Positions 6,496-26,532 of a stretch of 27,665 nucleotides of DNA are shown here, one piece after another (position 1 is the stretch's first letter; each line of letters starts with the position of its first letter). The DNA is taken from the IMG/VR virus record IMGVR_UViG_3300018068_000006, positions 1 through 27,665 of that record, one strand, 5' to 3'. Position numbers and translations under genes: made by a program. The notes under the pieces are model-generated. The model was not told the DNA's origin, did not search any database, and was given only the letters and a program-made list of their open reading frames with translations. The stretch comes from a virus (Duplodnaviria > Caudoviricetes).

Positions 6496-8842
6496 TTTGG
6501 GTTTGATTTTGATTTTGTAATTCCATTTCTTTCATATCTCTATCTTGACCTTTTATATATCTTTCATGAAACTGTTTATGACTTTCAAGTTCCATATCAT
6601 TTTGATGCTGATTATTATCAGTAGCTATTTTAGCCTGAACCTGCATAGTTTGATTATCCTGCATAGCTTTAGCTTTCATTTGTTCAAGTTGAGCATTTTG
6701 TTGACCCTGGGCCTGTATAGCTGCTTGTTTTTCTTTTTCTTGTCGATCTATTTCTTTATCAATAGCATTTGATAGGTAAAGACGTATATCACTTAAATTA
6801 GCACCGTGCATTAATTTTTCTTTAATATAAAGTTTTACATCAAATCTTATTAATGGCTTACCGTCTTTTCCAGGCATAGAAGCTGTTTCTATATCTCTAT
6901 ATAAACTTTGAAGTTCTTCAGTAGTAGGTCTAGGGACTAATTTTATACCTAATTCCCTTGCCTCGTATTCACTTTGAACTAAAGTATCCACATCGTTTTT
7001 ACCTATAACCCTAGAATAAACTTCCCTACAATTTTCATCATTCCTTAGTGCTAACCTAATGGCCTCTGATTGAAATTCAGCAGATTGTTCTTTTACTCTA
7101 AAGATAGAATCTATAATTGGCCTTAGTATCTTAGTAGTATTTTGCATTGCTATTTCAGTAGTACCAAGTCCACTTTGTGTATTTGGTTGAGACCCTAAAG
7201 CTATTGGATTTATACCTGTAATCATTTCAACCATACGTAAAGAATTTTCAAATAACTTGATAGACTCATCTATCCTATTCATAATAGTAGAAGGAATTAC
7301 ATCTATCGGTTTAACTGCCCCTCCACCATACTTACCATTTACCGGTAAGGACCTAAATGGTAAAACATGAGTTCTTTTAGCATGTTTAAGAATCTTTAAT
7401 GTATCCCATGTTTCACCACCCATTTTGATTCTATCCAAAACAGATTGATCAAGTAATAATATTTCCCCAAATGATTCTATTAATGATTCTTGTAGTTTTA
7501 ACCAAGTTATTTGAAAACTATCAAAAATAGGAATCAATCTTTGTGTTATAGCTACTTCTGTACCATTATATATATGAAAAGACATTAATGGCCTTTTATT
7601 ACTTTTATTCCTTGGTTGGCTAGGGCTAATCTTATGACTATAAATAAGGTCAGAACCTATAACCCACTTAGCTTCATATTTTCTTTTTATAGTAGTAACC
7701 CTAGTTTTATTAGCTTCTGTATTTCTTATTCTCCCAAAATCTTGATCATAAATAGTCATAATACCTCTCTTACCTTCATGTATTGTTTTATATTCAAGAT
7801 CATTATCTATCCATTCTACTTCAAGAACTAAGCATTTATAAAAATCATACATCCAATTACCATACCTATCTTTCTGGTTAAAATCCATCCATTGAGATTG
7901 AAGGGGGTTACTTAACAATCCACCCCAATTTTGAGCTAATTGTCCTATTTCTTCTTCTGAATAACCTTCATCTTCTAAAAAATGGCGTATTTCGGATACT
8001 GTTTTTTCTCTTATAATACCAAAATAACAACTATCATGGTAATCTCTTTTATCAGAATATTGTCCTATAACCCTAGTAATATCTTCATATTGCGTTTTCC
8101 ATTTACATTCTTCTGCATCATAATAATCATGAAGACATACAGCATTAAAATTAACAACATCCCTAATTAACTTTTCTTTTATATCTTCCCAATTAGATAT
8201 TTCATATGTATGTTTTAATGCCTTTTCAAGAGATTTAGCGATACCTGTTTTAAATTCTCCCAAGTCCTGCATAAGTTGTAATTCATCCAAATCTTTAGGA
8301 TATTTGGTATCGCTTTGTGTTGGTATATTAGCTTGTCCTTTTATAAGATTTAAAAAATCAAGATGTTGTGATTCTGCATATAACTTACTTTTAGATCGCT
8401 CCTGTTCGTATCCTGAATCTGGATCAATTGTATCAGCTACCATATTATAATCAACATCTTTAAACGATCCTAATATAGCTTGCATGATACGTGGAGCAAG
8501 ACTTAATATGTCTCTATTTAAATTACCTAATCCTTTTCTTTTACCTTGTTTATTAGTCCAATTACCATCAATACTAGTCATTACCCGGTTGGGTTCTTGA
8601 GTATCTCTTGGATACAATATTTCTTCATATTTAGCTGGATCTTGCCTACCATCAGAATATTGTCTTATTTCATTGTAATAAGAAAGTAATGAATATGGAA
8701 AACTAGCTTTATCTCCAACATATGTAGTATATATGGCCTCACACATTCGTATGCCATAATCTTTTGTTAATTTTAATTTTGGGTCTATATTCCTACTTGG
8801 AAACATAACCGTTTCTCTTTGATATTTTTCTGCAAACTTCAT
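6482..8842 (-). CDS. Portal protein (crAss-like size, about 786 aa)
   Basis: Large helical ORF in the terL-portal-scaffold-MCP order with a Gln-rich C-terminal coiled coil. Start moved from 8893 to ATG 8842 (MKFAEKYQ) because the extra 17 codons overlap the promoter and palindrome. Confidence 0.8.
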   Translation of the reverse strand: MKFAEKYQRETVMFPSRNIDPKLKLTKDYGIRMCEAIYTTYVGDKASFPYSLLSYYNEIRQYSDGRQDPAKYEEILYPRDTQEPNRVMTSIDGNWTNKQGKRKGLGNLNRDILSLAPRIMQAILGSFKDVDYNMVADTIDPDSGYEQERSKSKLYAESQHLDFLNLIKGQANIPTQSDTKYPKDLDELQLMQDLGEFKTGIAKSLEKALKHTYEISNWEDIKEKLIRDVVNFNAVCLHDYYDAEECKWKTQYEDITRVIGQYSDKRDYHDSCYFGIIREKTVSEIRHFLEDEGYSEEEIGQLAQNWGGLLSNPLQSQWMDFNQKDRYGNWMYDFYKCLVLEVEWIDNDLEYKTIHEGKRGIMTIYDQDFGRIRNTEANKTRVTTIKRKYEAKWVIGSDLIYSHKISPSQPRNKSNKRPLMSFHIYNGTEVAITQRLIPIFDSFQITWLKLQESLIESFGEILLLDQSVLDRIKMGGETWDTLKILKHAKRTHVLPFRSLPVNGKYGGGAVKPIDVIPSTIMNRIDESIKLFENSLRMVEMITGINPIALGSQPNTQSGLGTTEIAMQNTTKILRPIIDSIFRVKEQSAEFQSEAIRLALRNDENCREVYSRVIGKNDVDTLVQSEYEARELGIKLVPRPTTEELQSLYRDIETASMPGKDGKPLIRFDVKLYIKEKLMHGANLSDIRLYLSNAIDKEIDRQEKEKQAAIQAQGQQNAQLEQMKAKAMQDNQTMQVQAKIATDNNQHQNDMELESHKQFHERYIKGQDRDMKEMELQNQNQTQNAEQ

Positions 8843-10136: not shown

Positions 10137-12449
10137 TTAAAATTCTTTCCACCAGTCAAAATTACATTTAGTATCATCTATAGATGCCATTGATTTAATA
10201 GCAATACTTTCAGAGCCAAGTAAAGCACATCCAGCGGCAGCCGCTAAATCTAATTTATTAAGATCGGAGAATTGTTTTAATTGAGATACTTCTTTCAATA
10301 TACTAGCATGCTTTTCTTTATGACATCTAAACTCTATATAATTTTGCCATAGTGTCCACATTTGTTCTTTAGATTTTTCTAATTGGAAAACTCCAGGTCG
10401 TGTTTTTTGATTACCAGTTGCTTGGTCAATATCAAAAAGAAGGTATCCATCATAATTGTTTAATAAACAATATTCCCACAATGTTCCAGCATTGGTTTCT
10501 GGATATATCATGAATCCAAAATATTGGGCACATTTAATTACATCTTCATTATATTCTTCTGATAAAGGCCTATTCCTATATGAAGCTACAAAACAAAATG
10601 TTTCCCATTCATAAATACTTTTTTCATCTGGATCAATTTTATAATCCCTTAATAATAAAGCAGCTATTCCACCATCTGATTGATAACTACCGGTGGATAT
10701 AGCCATTTGTTTGTCACCTTTAAATTTAAAAGCATCTGAACCGACTATCCCTTTTTGCGGTTGCGATGGCATCCATACCTCTTTATAATCTCCAGATATA
10801 TTATCTATAAGCGTAGTCTTTATCCTTTTATTAGCTTCATATGATGGTAATATTTTACTAACTTCAAATTTACCATCTACCCTTGGGATAAAAATAACAT
10901 TCCCAAATTTAATTCCATTTTCCCATTCAAAATTACCTTTTATAAAAGGATCTTTCATCCTTCTTAAATTGGCTAACCTTTTATCTATATTTTCTATATT
11001 CCAACTAGTGGAACCTACAGAAAGTTTAAAACATTCATCAAGATTAAACGGGTATTTAACAACTAATCGCCTATATTTAATTTGACTTTTTGGGTCTTTA
11101 CTGTTTAATAAAGCATCCCTATTACTTTGAAGATGTTTTTTGGAACCATATTTAAATTTAAATCCATCTTGTATTTGTTCTAATGTCGGATTGTTTATTA
11201 TAGATTCACCATACTTTCCTATAAATCCTTCCAATCCTTCATATCCAGGGAATAATAATCTAAATAAACCAGACTTAGTTTGACCAGTAACTTTATTTCT
11301 TTGATAAAAATTAGAATCATATATTAGTGATTGGTAATTAATGCCACCATCTTGATCCATATCTTCGACAGTGGATGGATGTATAGAAAAACCCACTATA
11401 TCTGCACCATCGCCAAGAGACATACCTTGCTTATGAGTAGACCAACGTTCGGTAACATCACATTCTGAACATTTTCCACTTTCATCAAAAACTGCAAATG
11501 TCACCCTTTCGCCGTCAAACTCTGCTCCGAATGCTGATTTAGCATATGTTATCTTGCTATTTAATTGGTTTCCTATAATTAAATTTTTAGGTCTTTTAAA
11601 ATCTATAGCTGTTTTTTCATCAAAATAACCAGTCCACATAGGTAGAAAAAAGAAAGGCATTTCAGCCCATGACTTAACTGTTTTACCAGTAAATAAAGCC
11701 GAAGCACTAGTTTCTGTCATAGAAAATATAACAGCTAAATCACCTATTTTTTTAGATGTATTTTCATATTGTGCAGCTTGCGACATATTAGTAGTGCCAC
11801 CACGCCTATTCTTTGGCTGGCATACACCGAAACAAACTTTTGTATTTCTTTCTTCCATTTCATACTCACCAAGTTCGTTTTTTAAAGCATTGCCATTATC
11901 GTCAATGTATTTAAAAGTTTCTTTAGTATTATAACAATACCACCAAAAAAGAAAATTTTTCCTATCCCTATCCCTATATTCTGGATATAATCTTCCTTCT
12001 ATTTTCCACCATGTTAAATAAAAATAATGCCATCCACATATATAAGTAGGTTTACCATTATTGTAAAACCAATATCCATATATACGATGCCACCATTGGG
12101 CTTTTATAAAATCTATTTCTTCTTTATAATAAACAGTATTATTTTGTATCCTAGTCCATATTTCTTCAAGTATTTTATATCCTGTTATCCTATCATTCTT
12201 GTTTAAATTAAACCTAAGTTCTAAATCTTTTTTAATATCTTTTTCTAACTGTATTAATTTTTGTGGCATTACTGGCCTTTTCCAATATTGATCTTTTGGT
12301 TCCAAACCATAATTAGCAATTAGCTTTTCATTTGGAGGTAATGGTAATGATATTTTTATTGGAATCAAAGAGTTATCTAATTCAGTTAAATCAGGTGAAC
12401 CACAATTGACTATAAAATAATTATCGGGTGGTTGATATTGATATTTCAT
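10137..12449 (-). CDS. terL: Terminase large subunit
   Basis: 770 aa; Walker A-like KNRRGGTT, Walker B FAVFDESGK, nuclease-domain acidic motifs (IVGSD, SDG, YPETN, DLAAA). Size and motifs are crAss-like. Confidence 0.9.
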   Translation of the reverse strand: MKYQYQPPDNYFIVNCGSPDLTELDNSLIPIKISLPLPPNEKLIANYGLEPKDQYWKRPVMPQKLIQLEKDIKKDLELRFNLNKNDRITGYKILEEIWTRIQNNTVYYKEEIDFIKAQWWHRIYGYWFYNNGKPTYICGWHYFYLTWWKIEGRLYPEYRDRDRKNFLFWWYCYNTKETFKYIDDNGNALKNELGEYEMEERNTKVCFGVCQPKNRRGGTTNMSQAAQYENTSKKIGDLAVIFSMTETSASALFTGKTVKSWAEMPFFFLPMWTGYFDEKTAIDFKRPKNLIIGNQLNSKITYAKSAFGAEFDGERVTFAVFDESGKCSECDVTERWSTHKQGMSLGDGADIVGFSIHPSTVEDMDQDGGINYQSLIYDSNFYQRNKVTGQTKSGLFRLLFPGYEGLEGFIGKYGESIINNPTLEQIQDGFKFKYGSKKHLQSNRDALLNSKDPKSQIKYRRLVVKYPFNLDECFKLSVGSTSWNIENIDKRLANLRRMKDPFIKGNFEWENGIKFGNVIFIPRVDGKFEVSKILPSYEANKRIKTTLIDNISGDYKEVWMPSQPQKGIVGSDAFKFKGDKQMAISTGSYQSDGGIAALLLRDYKIDPDEKSIYEWETFCFVASYRNRPLSEEYNEDVIKCAQYFGFMIYPETNAGTLWEYCLLNNYDGYLLFDIDQATGNQKTRPGVFQLEKSKEQMWTLWQNYIEFRCHKEKHASILKEVSQLKQFSDLNKLDLAAAAGCALLGSESIAIKSMASIDDTKCNFDWWKEF

Positions 12450-13111
12450 TTATGACCTTTATATTTTAAAGGAGATGGCTTATAATCTCCATATGGGCTA
12501 TCTCCTATTATTTCATCAAGTTCATTATCTCCTGCCATAGCTATATTTTCAGGTCTTAATTTAAGATTTTCTTTTTCAACACTTTCATAAAGAGCCTGGC
12601 GAATATCAGTTACTTCATTACCTCCAAAAAGAAATTCTATACATTCATTGATTTTAGTTTCTAGTTTCTCAATATTGGCGATTGTATTTTTAAAATCTTT
12701 AGAATCATTAACTTTTGTAACATTTTCAAATTCAGCAGAAAGTATAGACCAATAATATACTAATGATAAATATTTAGGAGATGCAAATAATCTTATATAT
12801 TTTGATATGGCTAAGTTAACTTTATCATTATTACCAATAAGTACTTTTTCGTATTCATCTTTAAATTTACCATCTTTATTTTTAACAAACCCAGAAAGTT
12901 CGGCAGATATAATTTTTCTTTGGTTAAAATAAGGTACTTCTTTCCTTAACTGTGTATTTAAATCATATGCTAGTATTATATAAGAGATTACTTTTGATTT
13001 TTCTATACCAAAATCCTCCTTAAATTCATCATATGACTCTAATTTTGAAACAGTATTTTCACCCCAAGGATCATACATTAATACATTTACATTAATATCT
13101 TCCCGTTTCAT
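12446..13111 (-). CDS. Helical protein coupled to terL (candidate small terminase subunit)
   Basis: 221 aa with an ATGA overlap with terL; call is positional only. Confidence 0.45.
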   Translation of the reverse strand: MKREDINVNVLMYDPWGENTVSKLESYDEFKEDFGIEKSKVISYIILAYDLNTQLRKEVPYFNQRKIISAELSGFVKNKDGKFKDEYEKVLIGNNDKVNLAISKYIRLFASPKYLSLVYYWSILSAEFENVTKVNDSKDFKNTIANIEKLETKINECIEFLFGGNEVTDIRQALYESVEKENLKLRPENIAMAGDNELDEIIGDSPYGDYKPSPLKYKGHK

Positions 13112-13991
13112 TTTTTTGCCAGTTTATAGTTAATTTTAATCCTTCATTTAAATCATAGTTCGGTTTCCATCCAAGTATTTTTTCAGCTTTAGATATATCT
13201 AAACATCTCCTGTTTATTTTATCTATAAATCTTTTATCTATAAATTCAATAATTGGATGTTTCCCAATTATACTCGATATTACAACCGGTAATTTAAGGG
13301 AAGATGTTTCTACTCCTGTCCCTATATTTATTTCAGTATTTACAGCATTAGACTCAATAGCTATGATTAAAGACCAAACAACATCATCTATATAAGTATA
13401 ATCCCTAGTATCCGTACCATCACCATTAATAGTTATAGTTTTATCATTAAGTATTTGATCTATAAACTTGCCAACTACACCACAATATTTATTTTCTGGT
13501 CGCTGATTTTTACCATATACATTACTAAGACGTAATGTTGTAAAATTACCCCTTAACTTTAAGTATTTTTCAACTATACATTTACTTTGATCATAAGCAT
13601 TTGTTAAATTTTCTGGACAATCTTCTTGTGTTGGTATCTCTTTAGCTTGTCCATAAATAGAACTAGTACTAGTATATATAACTTTACCATTAAATTTTTC
13701 TATCAATTTAATACTTTCGAAAGCATTTGTTTTAAACGTATCTAATTGATTTTCTTGTGCATAAATAATATTACTTGTGGCGCAATGAATTAAAATATCA
13801 TATTTATTTAACTCTACTTCGGATATATCTTTAAAATCTTTTTCTATCCAATTTATACCAGGTAGTAAATTTTTAGCATATCCAAATTGTAAATTATCAC
13901 AACCGGATACATAATTTACACTATGATCATATAATTTATTAGCTAAATTACTACCCACGAAGCCACATATACCAGTTATAAAAATTTCCAT
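13092..13991 (-). CDS. NAD-dependent nucleotide-sugar epimerase/dehydratase (extended SDR)
   Basis: TGICGFVG Rossmann motif, TSTSSIYG, catalytic YDQSK (YxxxK), LRLSNVYG, GDGTDTRDYTYIDDVV, NIGTG. Confidence 0.92.
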   Translation of the reverse strand: MEIFITGICGFVGSNLANKLYDHSVNYVSGCDNLQFGYAKNLLPGINWIEKDFKDISEVELNKYDILIHCATSNIIYAQENQLDTFKTNAFESIKLIEKFNGKVIYTSTSSIYGQAKEIPTQEDCPENLTNAYDQSKCIVEKYLKLRGNFTTLRLSNVYGKNQRPENKYCGVVGKFIDQILNDKTITINGDGTDTRDYTYIDDVVWSLIIAIESNAVNTEINIGTGVETSSLKLPVVISSIIGKHPIIEFIDKRFIDKINRRCLDISKAEKILGWKPNYDLNEGLKLTINWQKNETGRY

Positions 13992-14788
13992 ATAATTCCT
14001 TGTTTTTTATATTCCAAATATTTTTCTAAAGATATTTGTCCAAATTTATCAATATTATAAATAATAAAATTCTTCCATTCCCTAAGTAATTTAGATGTAC
14101 CAAAACTACCTTTTTCATAATCCGTATGCTCTACAATATAACCAGGTAGTATACACCATTTATACCCTAATTGCTCCATCATATATATCGAAGCAGCTTC
14201 AATACCTCCATAAATTGGATATGAATCTAAATTTGGTATTCCACCGACTTCATTTAAAAATTTTCCTGAAAACCCACCTTGTGCCCAATTTAAATTCTCA
14301 ATTATTTCCCAAATCCTTTCACTACCAACTATTTTTTCAATGGTATTATTTTTATTTAGTATAGGAAAATATTCTGGCATAGCCAAACTTACCCAAGCAT
14401 ATTTAGGGTCAGCCCTAATAACATTTCCAATAGCCCTTACCCAATTTTTATCTTTAGGATGTTCATCTGGATCGGCACAACATAAAATATCATTATCATC
14501 CATTTTAAAATAATCATAGACTATAGACCAATTTTGTGAAACTCCTATATTATTTATTTTTAAGTAACCTGATCCATATTTTTTTGCCATTTCTTTAAGG
14601 ATAATAGTATTATATTCTATAGAAGCATTAATATCTTTCGGTATACTATCATTTATCAAAGGGAATCCAAGATCAACTATTACATGATTAAAATCATTAC
14701 GATCATTTAAATCGTACAATAATTTAACAGACTTTTCTACTTCGGTAGTAAAGTTCCAGCAAAGTGTATGTACTAAATTCCTATTCAT
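13976..14788 (-). CDS. Putative GT-A fold glycosyltransferase
   Basis: VIVDLG, NIGVSQNW, DxD motif (CADPDE), later GG..E and VEH motifs of GT2-like enzymes. Confidence 0.65.
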   Translation of the reverse strand: MNRNLVHTLCWNFTTEVEKSVKLLYDLNDRNDFNHVIVDLGFPLINDSIPKDINASIEYNTIILKEMAKKYGSGYLKINNIGVSQNWSIVYDYFKMDDNDILCCADPDEHPKDKNWVRAIGNVIRADPKYAWVSLAMPEYFPILNKNNTIEKIVGSERIWEIIENLNWAQGGFSGKFLNEVGGIPNLDSYPIYGGIEAASIYMMEQLGYKWCILPGYIVEHTDYEKGSFGTSKLLREWKNFIIYNIDKFGQISLEKYLEYKKQGIIWKFL

Positions 14789-15446
14789 TATTTTCGTTTA
14801 TAAAAGGTTGAAATTCTCCTTTTGTATTATAATCAACAAATAATTGGCATGCAGTTGCGGCTATAGGATTTTCTAAACATATCCAAGTTTCAGCATTATA
14901 TCTATTAGATTTATCCAACGAATCAATAGGTGGCAACGTGGAAACATATTCCGAATTAAACCAAAAAAAGTTTCCAGAATAGTGCATTTTAAATGCTGGT
15001 GTATAACTTGAAGGAAGTAATTTAACTCCATAAGTATAATATCCAATGTCAAGATGTTTTATAGCATTTTTCCATTGTGTTAAGTTATAGTAATTCATGT
15101 AATCTAACCAATACTTTCCACCTTCATTACCAGGATAACTACATCCTTTTGTATGGATATAAAATCCATAAAACTTAGGTTCATTTATAGATAACCTATG
15201 AACTATTTCAAGAGTATGAAATTCATACTTTTTAATATTTACATCGTAAGAATATATTTCTATTTTTTTAAATTCAAAAATATATTCTTTTAATTTATCG
15301 TACCCTGATTTATTACCAAGACATCCAATATATATATTATCAACTCTTTTATACAAACCAGATGATACAATACATTCTATTTGACATTTTACAATGTCTA
15401 AAAAATCATTAATTAAACATACATGGTAAAATCCTATTATTTTCAT
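14781..15446 (-). CDS. Uncharacterised glycan-cluster protein (putative glycosyltransferase-like)
   Basis: Motifs YEFHTL, YIHTKG, HYSGNFFW and RYNAETW, which I recognise from viral glycosylation clusters; activity not established. Confidence 0.5.
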   Translation of the reverse strand: MKIIGFYHVCLINDFLDIVKCQIECIVSSGLYKRVDNIYIGCLGNKSGYDKLKEYIFEFKKIEIYSYDVNIKKYEFHTLEIVHRLSINEPKFYGFYIHTKGCSYPGNEGGKYWLDYMNYYNLTQWKNAIKHLDIGYYTYGVKLLPSSYTPAFKMHYSGNFFWFNSEYVSTLPPIDSLDKSNRYNAETWICLENPIAATACQLFVDYNTKGEFQPFINENNE

Positions 15447-16030
15447 TTTCTATAAACAATTAAAGCATTATCCCTAGTGTACATTATTGGATTAAGATCA
15501 TATAATTCATATGGGATACCTAGTTCATTAAATTTTAATTTCTTTTCCTGTGGATCAATAATATCTTCAATAATTAAAAGTCCTCCATCATTAATTATAG
15601 GAAGTATGTTATTAACAATAAATAATTGGGTTAATAGTAAATGATTGCTATCATCAATTACTATATCTGGAATAAAATTAATTTCTTCAAACCAATATCC
15701 ATTTAATTCATGTACATCTTGAATATAAGTTTTAACCCTATTTGTTTCATATTGCTTACCTTCATAAAAAGTAAGCCAATCATTATCCGATTGATCTATA
15801 CCTATTATTCTTGTCCCTGGATGAGTAAAATAATCATCAAATAATCTTAATGCTCCACCGGCAGAATGTCCTATTTCAAATATATTACATTTTTTATCTT
15901 TAAAAGGTGCAAATAATTGATCATAAACAGGCAGGTACGAATGATTATCACCTTTATCGGTAATATATTTACTTCTACCATACTTATTCCATAACTGTAC
16001 TAATGTTAAATCTTTATCATTTATTTCCAT
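15443..16030 (-). CDS. Class I SAM-dependent methyltransferase (sugar O-methyltransferase-like)
   Basis: TDKGDNHSY, FEIGHSAGG, IIGID, DIVIDDSNH, GGLLIIED. Confidence 0.8.
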   Translation of the reverse strand: MEINDKDLTLVQLWNKYGRSKYITDKGDNHSYLPVYDQLFAPFKDKKCNIFEIGHSAGGALRLFDDYFTHPGTRIIGIDQSDNDWLTFYEGKQYETNRVKTYIQDVHELNGYWFEEINFIPDIVIDDSNHLLLTQLFIVNNILPIINDGGLLIIEDIIDPQEKKLKFNELGIPYELYDLNPIMYTRDNALIVYRK

Positions 16031-16037
16031 AATTTAT

Positions 16038-17123
16038 TTATTTAAATACATTATTTCTTTGCCACACTTTCCTTCTTACTACAATAATATTACTTATAAT
16101 ATACTCATCTTTTAATTCTTTAATAATTTCATCTTGTAATTTTACAATAAAATCATCATCCATTACTATACCTTCTGTAAGATAACAAATATATTCACCC
16201 GTAACATTAAATCTTATATCATAACAGTAATTATCCACACTTATTGGAAGTGAATCATGTGTTATGACATTACACTTGGTATGATTTCCATAAGTAACTA
16301 TATTAAAATCATGTACTTTTTGTGAGTATAATTCCCATATATTACTTCTATAATTAGTAATAAAAGTAACTAATGGCCTAATTATAACATTATAATCATG
16401 AATCCATACTGTCTTAGGTACACACCAACTAGCTCCACTTAAATGAACTGTATATTTATCTACAGGATAATATCCTATATTTAGGTTTTCCATTTCGGCA
16501 TGAATCATATTTTTTGCACAAGGAGCACCATGATCTTCAAATGGTGTTAATATTTTATAAGTAGGTATACGATAAATAGAACAACACGGATGGGCGTATC
16601 TTAATATATCAGTAGAATCAAATGGAGTACCACAACCTTCATTTTTTCTAGTCACAAGCATTAAATTACCGGTAGCATATAAATTATTGTCATGTTTAAA
16701 TTGATCAAGCATACCCTCTATAAATCCATATCTCATTGTTATAACATCAGAATCCATAAGAAGAACATAATCGGTATCTATATAATTTCTTATAGCTTCA
16801 TCCATTGTTATGCCATGAGAGTTTAATCCATCTCTTTCCCACACCTTAACATTTGGATACATAGCAGATTTAACACGTAAATACATGATAGATTCATCCT
16901 GGGAATTACCATCTACAATTAAAACTGGTATATCTGGATAAAAAGATAATAAACTTTCTAAACAAAGTTTTATTTCATCCCTTGTTTTTCTTTGACAAAT
17001 AAGAACGGTAATATTATTTTCTTTCCATACTTCTTTGTGATATTCATCTCCAGTCCAAAATGGCCTAACCAAATCTACTACTGGATTTTTTTTAATTAAT
17101 TTATCGTATTCTTCCTGGGTCAT
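16038..17123 (-). CDS. Glycosyltransferase, GT-A fold (GT2-like)
   Basis: CLESL, VLIVDGNSQD, HG..MD, DxD motif LLMDSD; possible degenerate second domain at the C-terminus. Confidence 0.85.
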   Translation of the reverse strand: MTQEEYDKLIKKNPVVDLVRPFWTGDEYHKEVWKENNITVLICQRKTRDEIKLCLESLLSFYPDIPVLIVDGNSQDESIMYLRVKSAMYPNVKVWERDGLNSHGITMDEAIRNYIDTDYVLLMDSDVITMRYGFIEGMLDQFKHDNNLYATGNLMLVTRKNEGCGTPFDSTDILRYAHPCCSIYRIPTYKILTPFEDHGAPCAKNMIHAEMENLNIGYYPVDKYTVHLSGASWCVPKTVWIHDYNVIIRPLVTFITNYRSNIWELYSQKVHDFNIVTYGNHTKCNVITHDSLPISVDNYCYDIRFNVTGEYICYLTEGIVMDDDFIVKLQDEIIKELKDEYIISNIIVVRRKVWQRNNVFK

Positions 17124-18106
17124 AATAAGCTATTTATTAATTCAATTCTTTGTTTATTTACATTTGATAATAAATATTTTTCTTTTATTTTTAATACAGA
17201 ATTATACCTATAAGTATTTCTAATACCATCGTTATCTATTAATATTTGTAATTTATTTCCAAATTCATGTTTAGAATTATAATGTAACGATATAGTATCC
17301 TCAAAGTAATTTGGACAAAGACATGCAGCCCCGGATAAAGTTCCTTCAATCCATGATATATTTGATTTACACCTATTAAAATCATTATCTTGTAATGGTA
17401 CTATAAATATGGATGGATTAATATTACATATTAACCCAAGATAACTATGAATATCAAAATTATCAATATATTGATAATTACTTAAACCTTTTAATATCTT
17501 TATGTCATATCCTATACTTATAAAGTGCCAGTCAGGATTATTAATAAGTACTTTTTTTATCACATCATGATATTCCATTATATCGTATTCATGATTACTT
17601 CCACCCCTGTAAACTATTTGTTTATTACCTGATAACTCTTTAAATGAATACACGTAATCATTAATAGCATTAGGTATTATCTTAAACTTATCCACTAAAT
17701 TAGGGTAAAAATAAGAATAATATTTAAACATTCTTTCGTTTGTTAACGTAATAACATCAGCACAATGGAGTATTTTTTTAAATGAAAGTTCGTCAAAAGA
17801 TTTTTGGTATTCATCATACATTACGTGGTCTTTTGGACAATCCTTCCAATCATCTAAATCTATCCAAATTTTAAGACCTAAATCTTTGCATAAAAAAACT
17901 TGGTCTATACATTTTTTATGAATAGGTCTTTGAAAAAAAGCTATATCAAACATCCTTATATCTGGCCAATTTAAATTCCAATTAGATTCTTTTATTTCAA
18001 TTAAATCCTGTTTTGATAGTTCAGAGTTAGTACCACGACCCCTCCAAAAAGAGCAAGCAGAATCTACCTTATCATAATATTCTAGTATTTTTGGTTTACT
18101 TTTCAT
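17120..18106 (-). CDS. Glycosyltransferase, GT-B fold (GT4-like)
   Basis: FFQR, WIDLDD, ADVIT, IIPNAI, YRGGSNHEYD, VPLQDNDFNRCKSNISWIE pattern typical of phage GT-B enzymes. Confidence 0.8.
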   Translation of the reverse strand: MKSKPKILEYYDKVDSACSFWRGRGTNSELSKQDLIEIKESNWNLNWPDIRMFDIAFFQRPIHKKCIDQVFLCKDLGLKIWIDLDDWKDCPKDHVMYDEYQKSFDELSFKKILHCADVITLTNERMFKYYSYFYPNLVDKFKIIPNAINDYVYSFKELSGNKQIVYRGGSNHEYDIMEYHDVIKKVLINNPDWHFISIGYDIKILKGLSNYQYIDNFDIHSYLGLICNINPSIFIVPLQDNDFNRCKSNISWIEGTLSGAACLCPNYFEDTISLHYNSKHEFGNKLQILIDNDGIRNTYRYNSVLKIKEKYLLSNVNKQRIELINSLL

Positions 18107-19948: not shown

Positions 19949-20015
19949 CAAATATAATAATTTTTTAATTATGTTATAAAACATATTGCATTTTTATTTT
20001 TTATTAGTATATTTG
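19949..20015. promoter_or_regulatory. Divergent promoters at the main strand switch, with palindrome ATGTTATAAAACAT (19971-19984)
   Basis: TATATTTG on minus (19956-19949) and on plus (20008-20015, with TTG 19 bp upstream). Confidence 0.7.
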
Positions 20016-20050
20016 TTCCGTTAAGTTCATTGAGGTATTTAAGAAAGTAT

Positions 20051-20084
20051 GTAAGACGGGGGTTCGATTCCCCCCAACTCCACA
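20051..20084 (+). ncRNA. tmRNA-like 3' fragment (T-arm plus acceptor strand)
   Basis: GAC-GGGGG-TTCGATT-CCCCC-CAACTCC-A-CA: GAC before the T-arm, U70 and discriminator A as in tmRNA. No matching 5' strand found. Confidence 0.65.
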
Positions 20085-20187
20085 TGTAGGTATCTTCTTA
20101 GCAAAAGATTTAATGGGTAGCTAAATCCTCGGAAATAATCCCACCTTCGCCTTAGAATGTTTCACATGGATAAGTAGTTGATTATAT

Positions 20188-20220
20188 ATCGCCTCACCTG
20201 TGAAGCGCGGGCGATTTTTT
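20188..20220 (+). terminator. Intrinsic terminator with CT-GTGA-AG apex
   Basis: ATCGCC / GGCGAT stem plus T-run. Confidence 0.65.
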
Positions 20221-20238: not shown

Positions 20239-20376
20239 GATGGTATGGCGGAATTGGTAGACGCATAGACTTACGACATCGGTGCAATTCCATGAGGCGA
20301 CTTCGGTAATGGGCGAAGTAGAATCGAGCACAGTATCGGCCATGTAAAACTCCGGGTTCGAATCCTGGTACCATCA
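20239..20376 (+). tRNA. Non-canonical tRNA-like RNA (tRNA-Leu-type body, about 85-nt insert replacing anticodon and variable arms)
   Basis: Acceptor GATGGTA/TACCATC plus A; D-arm GCG-GAATTGGTAGA-CGC; T-arm CCGGG-TTCGAAT-CCTGG; no closable anticodon stem; CCA not encoded. Confidence 0.75.
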
Positions 20377-20386
20377 TATATAACAT

Positions 20387-20436
20387 GCTTACCCCGCTTC
20401 CCATAAGAACAGCGCGCTTAGGGTGAGCTTTTTTTT
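20387..20436 (+). terminator. Intrinsic terminator after the tRNA-like RNA
   Basis: GCTTACCC / GGGTGAGC stem, inner CGCT/AGCG, T8 tail. Confidence 0.7.
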
Positions 20437-20564
20437 AAAATGACTCCTCAATCGCTTAGAGCGGTTGCTTAGTCGACCCGAAAGGGTAAGTAAAACAACT
20501 TGGTTGAATAATTAAAGGGGTTTAAGCTATTTATACCAAGTTGTTTTTAATTAAAAAATAAATT

Positions 20565-24447: not shown

Positions 24448-24471
24448 ATAGTTCATGTATTAATAATTTTT

Positions 24472-24507
24472 AGCCAATCTGTCTGCGAAGATCGATTGGC
24501 TTTTTTT
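24472..24507 (+). terminator. Intrinsic terminator with CT-GCGA-AG apex
   Basis: AGCCAATC / GATTGGCT stem plus T-run. Confidence 0.8.
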
Positions 24508-24906
24508 ATTTGTTAAATAATAAATTAATGAAAAATAAGACCACTGTTTAATTATTTGAGTGAATGTGAATGATTGGGGTTACTGATTAGATTGAGGGGG
24601 CCTATACGAAACGCAACCACATAAAAAGCCGAAACCCCCCCATACGACAATTCATATTTCATATACACATGTGGAAAAGTGATCATTACTTATACGTGTA
24701 GGACACATAAAGCTATTACATAGCACTAAAAAACACATTACAAATGATAAAACATGACTTTAATCATGTCCTGGGGGTCATATTTACATTATACATGTGT
24801 GTATGGGTGTAATAATGATAACATAAACATGTTAAACAACATACTAATACATAATGTATATATCAATTGAATTAGTATATTTGAATAGTTTATTAGGTCT
24901 AGGTTG

Positions 24907-24940
24907 AGCTCTGTATACTGTGAAGTATGCAGAGTTTTTT
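24907..24940 (+). terminator. Intrinsic terminator with CT-GTGA-AG apex
   Basis: GCTCTGTATAC / GTATGCAGAGT stem plus T-run, about 25 nt after TATATTTG (24876-24883). Confidence 0.75.
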
Positions 24941-24951
24941 ATTTGTGTACT

Positions 24952-24979
24952 TTGTCTTATAATATGTATTATGTTCAAT
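24952..24979 (+). other. dif-like XerC/XerD recombination site
   Basis: TTGTCTTATAA-TATGTA-TTATGTTCAAT in 11-6-11 layout; the right arm differs by one base from the E. coli XerD arm TTATGTTAAAT. Confidence 0.6.
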
Positions 24980-25007
24980 AGAATTACATTGAACTATCAT
25001 ATAACAC

Positions 25008-25043
25008 AAAAAGAGTAGTGACAATATGTCATTACTCTTTTTT
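25008..25043. terminator. Bidirectional hairpin terminator
   Basis: AAAAAGAGTAGTGACA-ATA-TGTCATTACTCTTTTT, downstream of the 78-aa minus-strand gene. Confidence 0.75.
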
Positions 25044-25356
25044 ACATTAAACTAATCGCAGTATGCTGTAAAAACTATACCTTAAAACTTGGTTTTGTTT
25101 TTCTATACTTAGATGGATTACGAGCTGAGGGATAATGTATAGTAACTCTTGATAGGATATACTTATACGGTTCATGATATAAGTCTTTATACCTCAACCT
25201 ATAAACTAAATTTTCATAAGGCTTATTAACTGCTAAACTAATTGCTTTTAAGTCGGCCCCTGTATAGACCTCTCCCTTCTCTAAGTCAATATAAACAAAA
25301 TTTACGGTCATAATTAGATTGTTTTACATTAAACTATTCATTGTATGCTGTAAAAA
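25040..25356. repeat. Two 34-bp direct repeats with internal dyad symmetry flanking the 78-aa gene
   Basis: TTTTACATTAAAC-N8-GTATGCTGTAAAA at 25040-25073 and 25322-25355. Confidence 0.85.
25075..25311 (-). CDS. Small putative DNA-binding protein (NUMOD1/HTH-like)
   Basis: YIDLEKGEVY..DLKAISLAVNKPYENLVYRLR resembles the beta-hairpin plus HTH pattern of NUMOD1-type domains; basic C-terminus. Confidence 0.5.
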   Translation of the reverse strand: MTVNFVYIDLEKGEVYTGADLKAISLAVNKPYENLVYRLRYKDLYHEPYKYILSRVTIHYPSARNPSKYRKTKPSFKV

Positions 25357-26121
25357 TAACTATTTTTAAGATTAAAAACAATAAATAAAACTAGCTGCGC
25401 GACTTTATATTACTCAGCTAACCCCAAAAAATATATATCCTCAAACCTCTTCTTTATCACTAGTAATAAACATTTTACAAAAGTAGGTCTACCTTATTAT
25501 TTATTTTAAATCGTTTTAGTATCACTATTTTGTATTATTAGGTTATTTTAAACGAGAGGCTTTTAGAATAGGTTTTATTGTAAAGGATATTTAGGTTATT
25601 GGGTATATATACAAGCGCACATCTCTTATATTTATTCCAGATTTGTGTTTAACTTTTAATAAAAAACTCTTAACATTCATCCCTGATTTATATTTAACAC
25701 CTTATTACATATAACGTTTAATACTTCGAATATACAAAACTTTTTAGTAATATCCAACTATTTTAGTAAAAAACATGACTTTTATCATGTCTACAATCGA
25801 ATATTTGCACAAAGCTGTACAGTTACTCGTAAATATGATTATAATATGTATGTTGTAAAACATAAAAAAAAACACAAAACATAACATAAGTCATATTTTT
25901 TTGGATTTTATCAGCGTATATTTACATAACGAAACACAAAAAAGTTTTTCTCTTAAAATGTTTCACACGTTCTTTATGGTTTTGAAGTTTTACCAGAAAA
26001 TTTCGGTTCACGGGTTTTGGAAGTTTTACCCGCTTAAAAAAAAGGCAACATGTTTGCAGGTAGTAAGTGTTACAGCTACCAAACTTCAAAAGTTTAACAC
26101 CAACGCAGGTATCGTTACTAG

Positions 26122-26292
26122 TTCCTTCTTAAAAAATGGTGCTAAACTGCCGGAGGTTTTTGCTAGTTATCTCCAAAAAGTAAACTAGCTAATTTCCCAA
26201 ATAGGGATGAAAAGAAAACATACAAGAAAGTAGGAACAGTGATATTCGTTTACTAGTTCCTACTTTCTTTCCTTCTTAAAAAATGGTGCTAA
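26122..26292. repeat. 24-bp direct repeat around a 14-bp perfect hairpin
   Basis: TTCCTTCTTAAAAAATGGTGCTAA at 26122-26145 and 26269-26292; AAGAAAGTAGGAAC/GTTCCTACTTTCTT at 26224-26237/26256-26269. Confidence 0.85.
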
Positions 26293-26364
26293 GGGATTAG
26301 CCGTGAAGCCCGGCAAATGAAAAATACTTCATTCCAGTTCAAACCATTTTAAACTTAGAAAAAC

Positions 26365-26532
26365 ATGAAAACTTGTATAGCAATCACAGCTTTGTTTTTT
26401 ACAGCTCTTTTAGTTTGTATTTTTATTTCATTCAGTACTCCTGTTGCTTTCTGCATTTTTTTAACATGTACTATTAGCTTTTTGAGTGCATTAGTTAGTA
26501 CTTTTATTTTCTTTTATCTTAAAAACATTTAA
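26365..26532 (+). CDS. Small two-helix membrane protein (55 aa, not in ORF track)
   Basis: MKTCIAITALFFTALLVCIFISFSTPVAFCIFLTCTISFLSALVSTFIFFYLKNI; its upstream CTTAGAAAAAC is similar to CTTAGGAAAC before the next gene. Confidence 0.6.
   Translation: MKTCIAITALFFTALLVCIFISFSTPVAFCIFLTCTISFLSALVSTFIFFYLKNI

Follow-up and report, generated by a model that had tools for sequence, protein, structure and literature searches.

Sequence analysis of a leucine tRNA frame with an orphan insert, from a widespread and unannotated class of phage RNA genes

The stretch of DNA analysed here, called the window below, is a whole virus record of 27,665 bases, the open reading frames (ORFs) of which include portal, large terminase, tail fibre, resolvase and endolysin genes. 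The best cultured matches of the terminase were Flavobacterium and Cellulophaga phages, at ~27% identity, and the resolvase, which adjoins the RNA gene studied here, had named relatives from Tenacibaculum and Sphingobacterium, so that the host is likely to be a Bacteroidota bacterium, as judged from these protein relatives. Among the DNA runs listed, 24 contained the stretch, 7 of them with a flag as possible source, and their habitats were freshwater and sediment; no RNA run was listed with it, which says nothing either way about expression. A block of glycosyltransferase, methyltransferase and NAD-dependent epimerase genes adjoining the terminase (12446-18106, minus strand) suggests glycosylation of DNA or capsid, and a region of about 2 kb (24450-26500), in which long ORFs are sparse, short palindromic words recur and the AT skew switches, may be a genome end or an origin region.

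Within a 635-nt non-coding gap where gene direction switches lies a gene of 138 nt (20239-20376, plus strand), built of the outer frame of a leucine tRNA around an 87-nt insert (Table 1). The candidate promoter word upstream follows the Bacteroidota sigma-A consensus TAnnTTTG given in the consulted portion of PMC9723704 and has a mirror copy on the minus strand (19949-19956); such words are not enriched in the window, with 53 found and 49.9 expected. The hairpin just 5' of the gene could act as a stop for upstream read-through, and no promoter word lies between it and the gene, which counts against the scaffold reading that is set out below. The terminator-like hairpin on the 3' side is absent from the list returned by the consensus terminator scan. 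Between that terminator and the resolvase there is a further, very stable set of hairpins (20440-20560, plus strand; z -6.1), including a long stem followed by T runs, and Rfam gave no match for it.

Table 1. Features at and around the leucine-type frame, in window positions.
Feature	Position	Strand	Basis or remarks
TAnnTTTG word (Bacteroidota sigma-A -7 box), candidate promoter only	20008..20015	+	at the strand switch
tmRNA-type T arm and 3' strand of acceptor	20055..20083	+	partial matches to RF00023 and RF04321, below gathering
Hairpin and run of 6 T	20188..20220	+	18 nt 5' of the gene; consensus scan; fold z -1.36
Acceptor stem, 5' strand	20239..20245	+	7/7 Watson-Crick with 20369-20375; G1-C72, U3-A70, no G3.U70
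U8, G9 and leucine-type D arm	20246..20264	+	sequence; RF00005 alignment
87-nt insert in place of anticodon and variable arms	20265..20351	+	ends in U48 (20351)
6-bp terminal hairpin, 8-nt loop	20300..20319	+	pair probabilities of the stem 0.87-1.0
T arm, 5 bp (one G.U), canonical 7-nt loop (U54, U55, C56, A58)	20352..20368	+	RF00005 alignment; constrained fold
Acceptor stem, 3' strand, and discriminator A73 (20376)	20369..20376	+	sequence
Terminator-like hairpin and run of 8 T	20387..20436	+	10 nt past A73; fold z -2.34

The tRNA family RF00005 matched exactly 20239-20376 at 37.8 bits (gathering 29), with 77 nt falling outside the model, and ARAGORN at default settings called neither a tRNA nor a tmRNA for the gene. 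All 15 frame pairs were intact in the sequence and in the constrained fold (acceptor 7/7, D stem 3/3, T stem 5/5), the D stem being formed by 20248-50/20262-64 and the T stem by 20352-56/20364-68, and A14, A15, G18G19 (20256-57), U20, A20a, G21 and A22 were present. The D arm is diagnostic for leucine, because all 45 canonical tRNAs sharing its motif in the loci that we fetched ourselves carry Leu anticodons. These results bear out a preliminary description of the gene, made from the sequence alone, in which the acceptor, D and T arms were seen as intact and tRNA-Leu-like. The 3' CCA is unencoded, as TAT directly follows A73, and C74 is missing, though kept in 51 of the 57 clusters of similar genes described below, which counts against the scaffold reading.

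The complete set of E. coli identity elements for leucyl-tRNA synthetase (LeuRS) was found in the gene (A73, A15:U48, G18G19, A20a, G19:C56, U54:A58), although these are the rules of E. coli and may not match those of the host LeuRS, which is probably a Bacteroidota enzyme. According to the parts consulted of a review (PMC9976931), the identity of tRNA-Leu in E. coli resides in A73, A15-U48, G18G19, A20a and the D/T contacts, and variants without both the anticodon and the variable arm are still charged there, with Larkin et al. 2002 cited for a minimal tRNA-Leu lacking both. The same parts of that review agree with the earlier statement that LeuRS relies on A73 and tertiary shape more than on the anticodon.

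The insert, which had been put at about 85 nt between the D and T arms in place of an anticodon arm, was measured at 87 nt (20265-20351) and has a GC content of 47%, compared with 29% for the window. No canonical 5-bp anticodon stem with a 7-nt loop was found, the best in register having 3/5 pairs, and the 5' end of the insert still resembles the beginning of a Leu anticodon arm with one base missing. The insert's minimum free energy of -19.4 kcal/mol gave z values of -0.39 and -0.55 in two shuffle tests, a stability at chance level. With the shell (the tRNA frame) enforced, the best fold reached -37.4 kcal/mol, compared with -27.1 for the four nested stems proposed earlier, and consisted of one long irregular hairpin (20271-75/20343-47, 20279-85/20333-39, 20293-95/20324-26 and 20300-05/20314-19). 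All four proposed stems exist as complementary words, and TTAC/GTAA and ACTTCG/CGAAGT are part of the best fold, but GTGC/GCAC and ATTC/GAAT are displaced in it by 20279-85/20333-39 and 20293-95/20324-26. The words proposed to form a pseudoknot, loop ATGG (20309-20312) with CCAT (20290-20293), are likewise complementary, but the loop could pair just as well with another CCAT, at 20340-43 immediately ahead of the T stem, and among 2000 shuffles a 4-bp Watson-Crick partner for the 8-nt loop arose in 63%, compared with 8.6% for a 6-bp hairpin; a pseudoknot in the insert is thus possible but unsupported. By eye, part of the insert is like the core of the HDV ribozyme, a likeness that we rejected because no Rfam match at E up to 10 backed it.

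Genes built like this one are widespread among viruses. A pattern of the D-arm motif, a gap of 72-102 nt and a T loop matched an estimated ~650 viral stretches, and 120 fetched viral loci yielded 86 single shells (at least 6/7 acceptor pairs, at least 4/5 T pairs and no second arm), 80 of them distinct, in 57 insert clusters. As this filter demanded paired stems, nothing independent can be read from the stem counts in the class, nor can leucine dominance be read from its numbers, the search patterns having been designed for leucine-type frames. At positions left free by the pattern, U8 was found in 56/57 clusters, A14 and A15 in 57/57 each and U48 in 56/57. At the 3' end A73 was present in 43/57, C74 in 51/57 and CCA in 3/57, compared with 45/45 for A73 and 24/45 for CCA in canonical Leu tRNAs. 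With A73 relaxed and the elbow bases almost invariant, the common purpose of the class seems to lie in shape and processing more than in charging. The insert boundaries, after C25 and up to U48, recurred across the 57 insert clusters, and the gene shares this layout: its D arm is of the Leu type, its acceptor and T stems are paired, and its insert begins after C25 and runs to U48, with no anticodon arm.

The set was enlarged to 235 distinct frames, of which 45 canonical, 13 nested and 13 tandem artefacts were dropped before class counts, giving 163 frames other than the gene itself, in 86 insert clusters. A loose test left a possible anticodon stem in 14/86 clusters, which could be loop-insertion tRNAs. 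The acceptor 5' strands had 64 distinct sequences in the 86 clusters, yet pairing was kept, and two-sided swaps of acceptor pairs occurred in 9 of the 10 families of three or more. Conservation of the insert exceeded that of the acceptor stem in 6/10 families (e.g. 0.78 compared with 0.24, and 0.88 compared with 0.60) and fell below it in 4/10, the latter counting against the scaffold reading. Class inserts were only modestly stable (mean z -0.96, with z <= -2 in 12/84) and were GC-richer than their own locus in 36/73, i.e. without enrichment; these figures count against the scaffold reading, as does the chance-level fold of the 87-nt insert. Rfam, run over 20 class loci, matched the frames as tRNA only or left them unmatched, and long shells in the Leu-biased loci numbered 100 with the Leu motif and 18 without, several of the 18 being Leu variants or loop-insertion tRNAs. 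In the flanks, which for the most part spanned 300-1200 nt, no partner gene recurred among 127 ORFs beside the shells (HNH was seen in 4), so that no target is suggested, and this too counts against the scaffold. The earlier idea of a class of non-decoding tRNA-Leu mimics gains from the estimated ~650 matches, the fetched shells and the acceptor swaps, but a single conserved insert structure is not supported, as the inserts fell into 86 clusters, none of them like this insert.

Two cultured phages, SPP1 (L522, 1196-1305, equivalent to NC_004166 about 6647-6756; U73) and Leuconostoc phage Ln-9 (L523, about 596-720; A73), have frames of this plan that are unannotated and differ in a 6-bp T stem and a variant T loop. 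The word 'tRNA' is absent from the main text of the SPP1 re-annotation (PMC6316719), and no published account of a class of Leu shells with inserts was found in the literature searched, which was mostly open-access. A shell family with U1-A72 and G73 is present in bacterial genomes, seen in Pedobacter (L402, L415, L426, L429, L431 and others) and Hymenobacter (L403, L414); Pedobacter has two shell copies close together, with inserts of ~57 and ~90 nt, and related sequences also occur in phages (L037, L088). In another phage family (that of L033) and in L212 (1302-1412), the loop of an insert hairpin is complementary over 6 bp to the sequence immediately preceding the T stem, which suggests a recurring pseudoknot on the basis of base complementarity; in the seven aligned sequences of the L033 family the pseudoknot columns are nearly invariant, hence there is no covariation signal. 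An intergenic stretch of Cellulophaga phage phi10:1 (L525, about 1500-1550) is 79% like part of an insert of this family and lies outside any tRNA frame, and some inserts may therefore also exist as free motifs.

The 87-nt insert itself had no homologue in anything searched, so that selection on it lacks support, which counts against the scaffold reading. A hairpin-plus-T-arm pattern gave 51 viral matches, none inside a tRNA frame, a 3'-end pattern gave none at all, and a D-arm-plus-insert pattern returned from metagenome contigs only the window's own sequence (L282). Aligned with the 163 other inserts, its best local score was 20, compared with 21.3 for shuffles; cultured phages gave one 19-nt match only (E 2), and Bacteroidota genomes gave 0/401 in a search run without positive control. 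Three DNA runs covered the gene without a difference and a fourth, covering the gene start, held no variant. For positional relatives, a terminase-based search found one locus, at 27%, and the two nearest resolvase loci (65-66%) had no tRNA-like gene within 3 kb. Leucine-type shells stood beside the resolvase in 2 of 80 related loci (L205, L212), with other inserts of ~60 nt, which counts for the scaffold reading. A normal tRNA-Leu in relatives, named beforehand as the result that would speak for a pseudogene, was called beside the resolvase in none of these 80 loci, which are distant relatives only (32-66% protein identity).

Set beside known systems, the gene has in common with bacterial tRNA-Leu (RF00005) the 7/5 acceptor branch, the leucine D arm, A73, A15:U48, G18G19, A20a and the canonical T loop, but at 138 nt it is without anticodon and variable arms, carries the 87-nt insert and leaves CCA unencoded. 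The tRNA-like domain of tmRNA (RF00023, RF04321) likewise joins acceptor and T arm to a large RNA that replaces the anticodon arm, but tmRNA has G3.U70, no D stem and a tag reading frame, where the gene has U3-A70 and a 3-bp D stem, and the tmRNA families gave no match above chance over the gene. Engineered tRNA scaffolds graft their cargo onto a kept anticodon stem or variable arm, whereas in the gene both lower arms are replaced. Foreign RNA inside a tRNA frame, the principle that we propose here, is also theirs, and RNAs inserted in these man-made scaffolds are stabilised, according to parts of PMC3753655 and PMC5397188.

Among phage genes, species 1 RNA of T4 (rnaC, NC_000866 70908-71046) is, as compared by sequence, a precedent in kind with a different layout. 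It has 139 nt, a near-identical T arm and a tRNA-like 3' end, but neither the leucine D motif nor an RF00005 match, and at its annotated 5' end only 4/7 acceptor pairs form, the strand that pairs 7/7 with the acceptor 3' strand being found at position 46; the RNA is described in portions of PMC9697503 and PMC12685909 as expressed late and of unknown function. T4 rnaD has no T loop. The intron-bearing tRNAs of Lak megaphages are phage tRNA frames that are likewise interrupted (79-141 nt), with neither an Rfam match nor a known splicing route in the consulted part of PMC6784885 (Table S6), but they are given there a full anticodon stem and an anticodon (Tyr, Phe, Thr or Gly), whereas no excision restores such an arm in the gene. 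Allo-tRNAs and selC* tRNAs are irregular tRNA-like genes too, some of which translation does not use, but have 8/4 or 9/3 branches and anticodons in the sections consulted of PMC5389517; an allo-tRNA identity was rejected for the gene, with its 7/5 branch and no anticodon arm, on comparison with what those sections and PMC7609411 present. The gene is thus distinct from canonical tRNAs, from intron genes of the group I or Lak type, from tmRNA and from allo-tRNAs. Its leucine-tRNA frame is real and intact, its insert is an orphan, and it belongs to a widespread and unannotated phage class.

The tmRNA-type piece upstream of the gene has no 5' acceptor partner on the plus strand of the window. It looks like a remnant or an att-like piece, and 20008-20180 (plus strand) is possibly a decayed permuted tmRNA or a piece of an attachment site. 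Since the piece looks like a remnant, the odds are raised that the locus holds decaying RNA genes, and this neighbour counts against the scaffold reading. A short frame downstream of the piece reads GNNPTFALEC..., faintly like a tag peptide. In another phage locus (L074, 289-735) an intact permuted tmRNA (RF04321, 55.9 bits) directly precedes a leucine-type frame, the insert of which has 98 nt, in the same order as in the window. That locus was the only one of 109 viral shells with a tmRNA-type 3' end within 600 nt upstream, so that there is no general link between tmRNA and shells.

The explanation that we prefer, tentatively and at somewhat less than an even chance, is that the gene encodes a stable, non-decoding RNA in which the tRNA-Leu frame would be a natural scaffold for a lineage-specific RNA module. 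Transcription would proceed on the plus strand and end at the hairpin beyond A73. Release of the RNA by host RNase P and 3' trimming is proposed because neither the acceptor stem nor the D/T elbow is damaged, and completion of the 3' end would fall to the CCA enzyme of the host. Leucylation by the host LeuRS would be probable, since all of the E. coli identity elements are present and both missing arms are dispensable in that organism. The RNA would be incapable of reading codons, and the insert, shielded from exonucleases, would have a protein or an RNA of the host as its binding partner, with counter-defence or translation control as the most plausible purpose; this binding is the least supported step of the proposal. 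The scaffold is favoured by a frame that has kept every one of its 15 pairs and its invariant bases, although no residue of an anticodon or variable arm is left. Among the three options first raised, i.e. a nuclease decoy, an aminoacyl carrier and a scaffolded functional RNA, the last fits best and a decoy for anticodon nucleases is the weakest, as no anticodon loop is present.

The working part could instead be the frame itself, luring away or competing for host proteins that bind tRNA at its acceptor end or elbow, with the insert merely blocking use by the ribosome and by anticodon nucleases; tRNA-modifying or CCA-attacking defence toxins, EF-Tu and synthetases were considered as targets. 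We regard this as unlikely. It agrees with a frame that is invariant while inserts are unrelated across the 86 clusters, and with an 87-nt insert that is not specially stable, but not with the 6/10 families in which inserts are better conserved than acceptor stems; anticodon nucleases, moreover, are offered no anticodon loop, and the phrase 'tRNA mimic' was not found in the literature searched on it.

That the gene is instead a dead tRNA-Leu gene, which lost its anticodon and variable arms to a recent insertion or replacement and the frame of which has so far not decayed, seems distinctly unlikely to us. Against such decay stand the 15/15 intact frame pairs, the identical boundaries (after C25, up to U48) in 57 insert clusters and the finding of no canonical tRNA-Leu beside the resolvase in the 80 related, albeit distant, loci (32-66% protein identity). 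A dead gene would nevertheless accord with an insert that has no homologue and folds at chance level, with an end that has neither CCA nor C74, with the tmRNA remnant 155 nt upstream and with the insert's 5' end, still like the start of a Leu anticodon arm though one base short.

A dedicated leucine carrier for a non-ribosomal transferase, serving aminoacylation of protein, cell wall or glycan, is improbable. The full LeuRS identity set in an RNA without decoding ability, and the glycosyltransferase and epimerase genes of the window, are what such a carrier would lead one to expect; an aminoacyl-transferase, however, is absent from the window and from the 127 flanking ORFs of the class, and A73 is missing in 14/57 class clusters.

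Splicing of an intron-bearing gene to a normal tRNA is very improbable. ARAGORN, when introns were allowed, called a tRNA-Val(TAC) with a 62-nt intron, but the stem in that call has only 3/5 pairs, and no excision with its junction in the anticodon loop gave at least 4/5 stem pairs together with U33 (six such stem-restoring excisions lie elsewhere in the insert), in line with the earlier remark that no excision restores a canonical anticodon stem. Although the loose test left a possible anticodon stem in 14/86 clusters, the gene itself fails it, and although intron-bearing tRNA genes exist in Lak phages, those retain the full anticodon stem. No intron or ribozyme family in Rfam matched the gene at E up to 10, and a group I intron in a tRNA-Leu was rejected on that ground and for want of an arm-restoring excision. 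An archaeal BHB motif is a 4-bp helix with a 3-nt bulge 3' of the helix on each strand. Here, 20273-79 and 20339-45 can be arranged as 3-4-3, but on inspection the bulges are 5' of the helix, the opposite hand, and an archaeal-type intron was likewise rejected. Within the class, L087, L102 and L115 do resemble tRNA-Leu with a loop insertion, which is to that extent in favour of splicing. Together with L084 and L355 they are phage tRNA-Leu genes that keep the anticodon stem and variable arm and have short anticodon-loop insertions (44-62 nt according to ARAGORN in L084, L087, L102 and L115), and the five form a separate, possibly spliced subclass.

A role at the DNA level, as an attachment or recombination site such as the tmRNA piece nearby may be, is the least credible reading, for although tmRNA 3' pieces serve in attachment sites and one lies upstream, the long-range acceptor pairing is kept by two-sided swaps, which is selection at the RNA level, and no integrase was among the 34 window ORFs scanned (the contig is partial).

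Returning to the scaffold, the gene is likely to be one of hundreds of unannotated phage RNAs in which a tRNA frame would be the stable carrier of a lineage-specific RNA module. A bolder extension is that phages would have repeatedly turned tRNA-Leu, the synthetase of which disregards both lower arms, into a general natural RNA scaffold, a leucylated, EF-Tu-bound and nuclease-proof frame delivering dozens of unrelated effector modules, anti-defence or ribosome-directed, with the 87-nt insert as one independent invention; we consider this doubtful. What this single gene adds is modest, as its insert is a singleton within the class. For the class, tRNA finders miss such genes or call them intron-bearing tRNAs with arbitrary anticodons, by which phage tRNA counts are distorted, and, since Bacillus phage SPP1 is in standard laboratory use, its unannotated frame makes the class accessible to experiment. 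Should the class prove functional, it would add a large set of unannotated members to the non-coding RNAs of phages and be nature's equivalent of the engineered tRNA scaffold.
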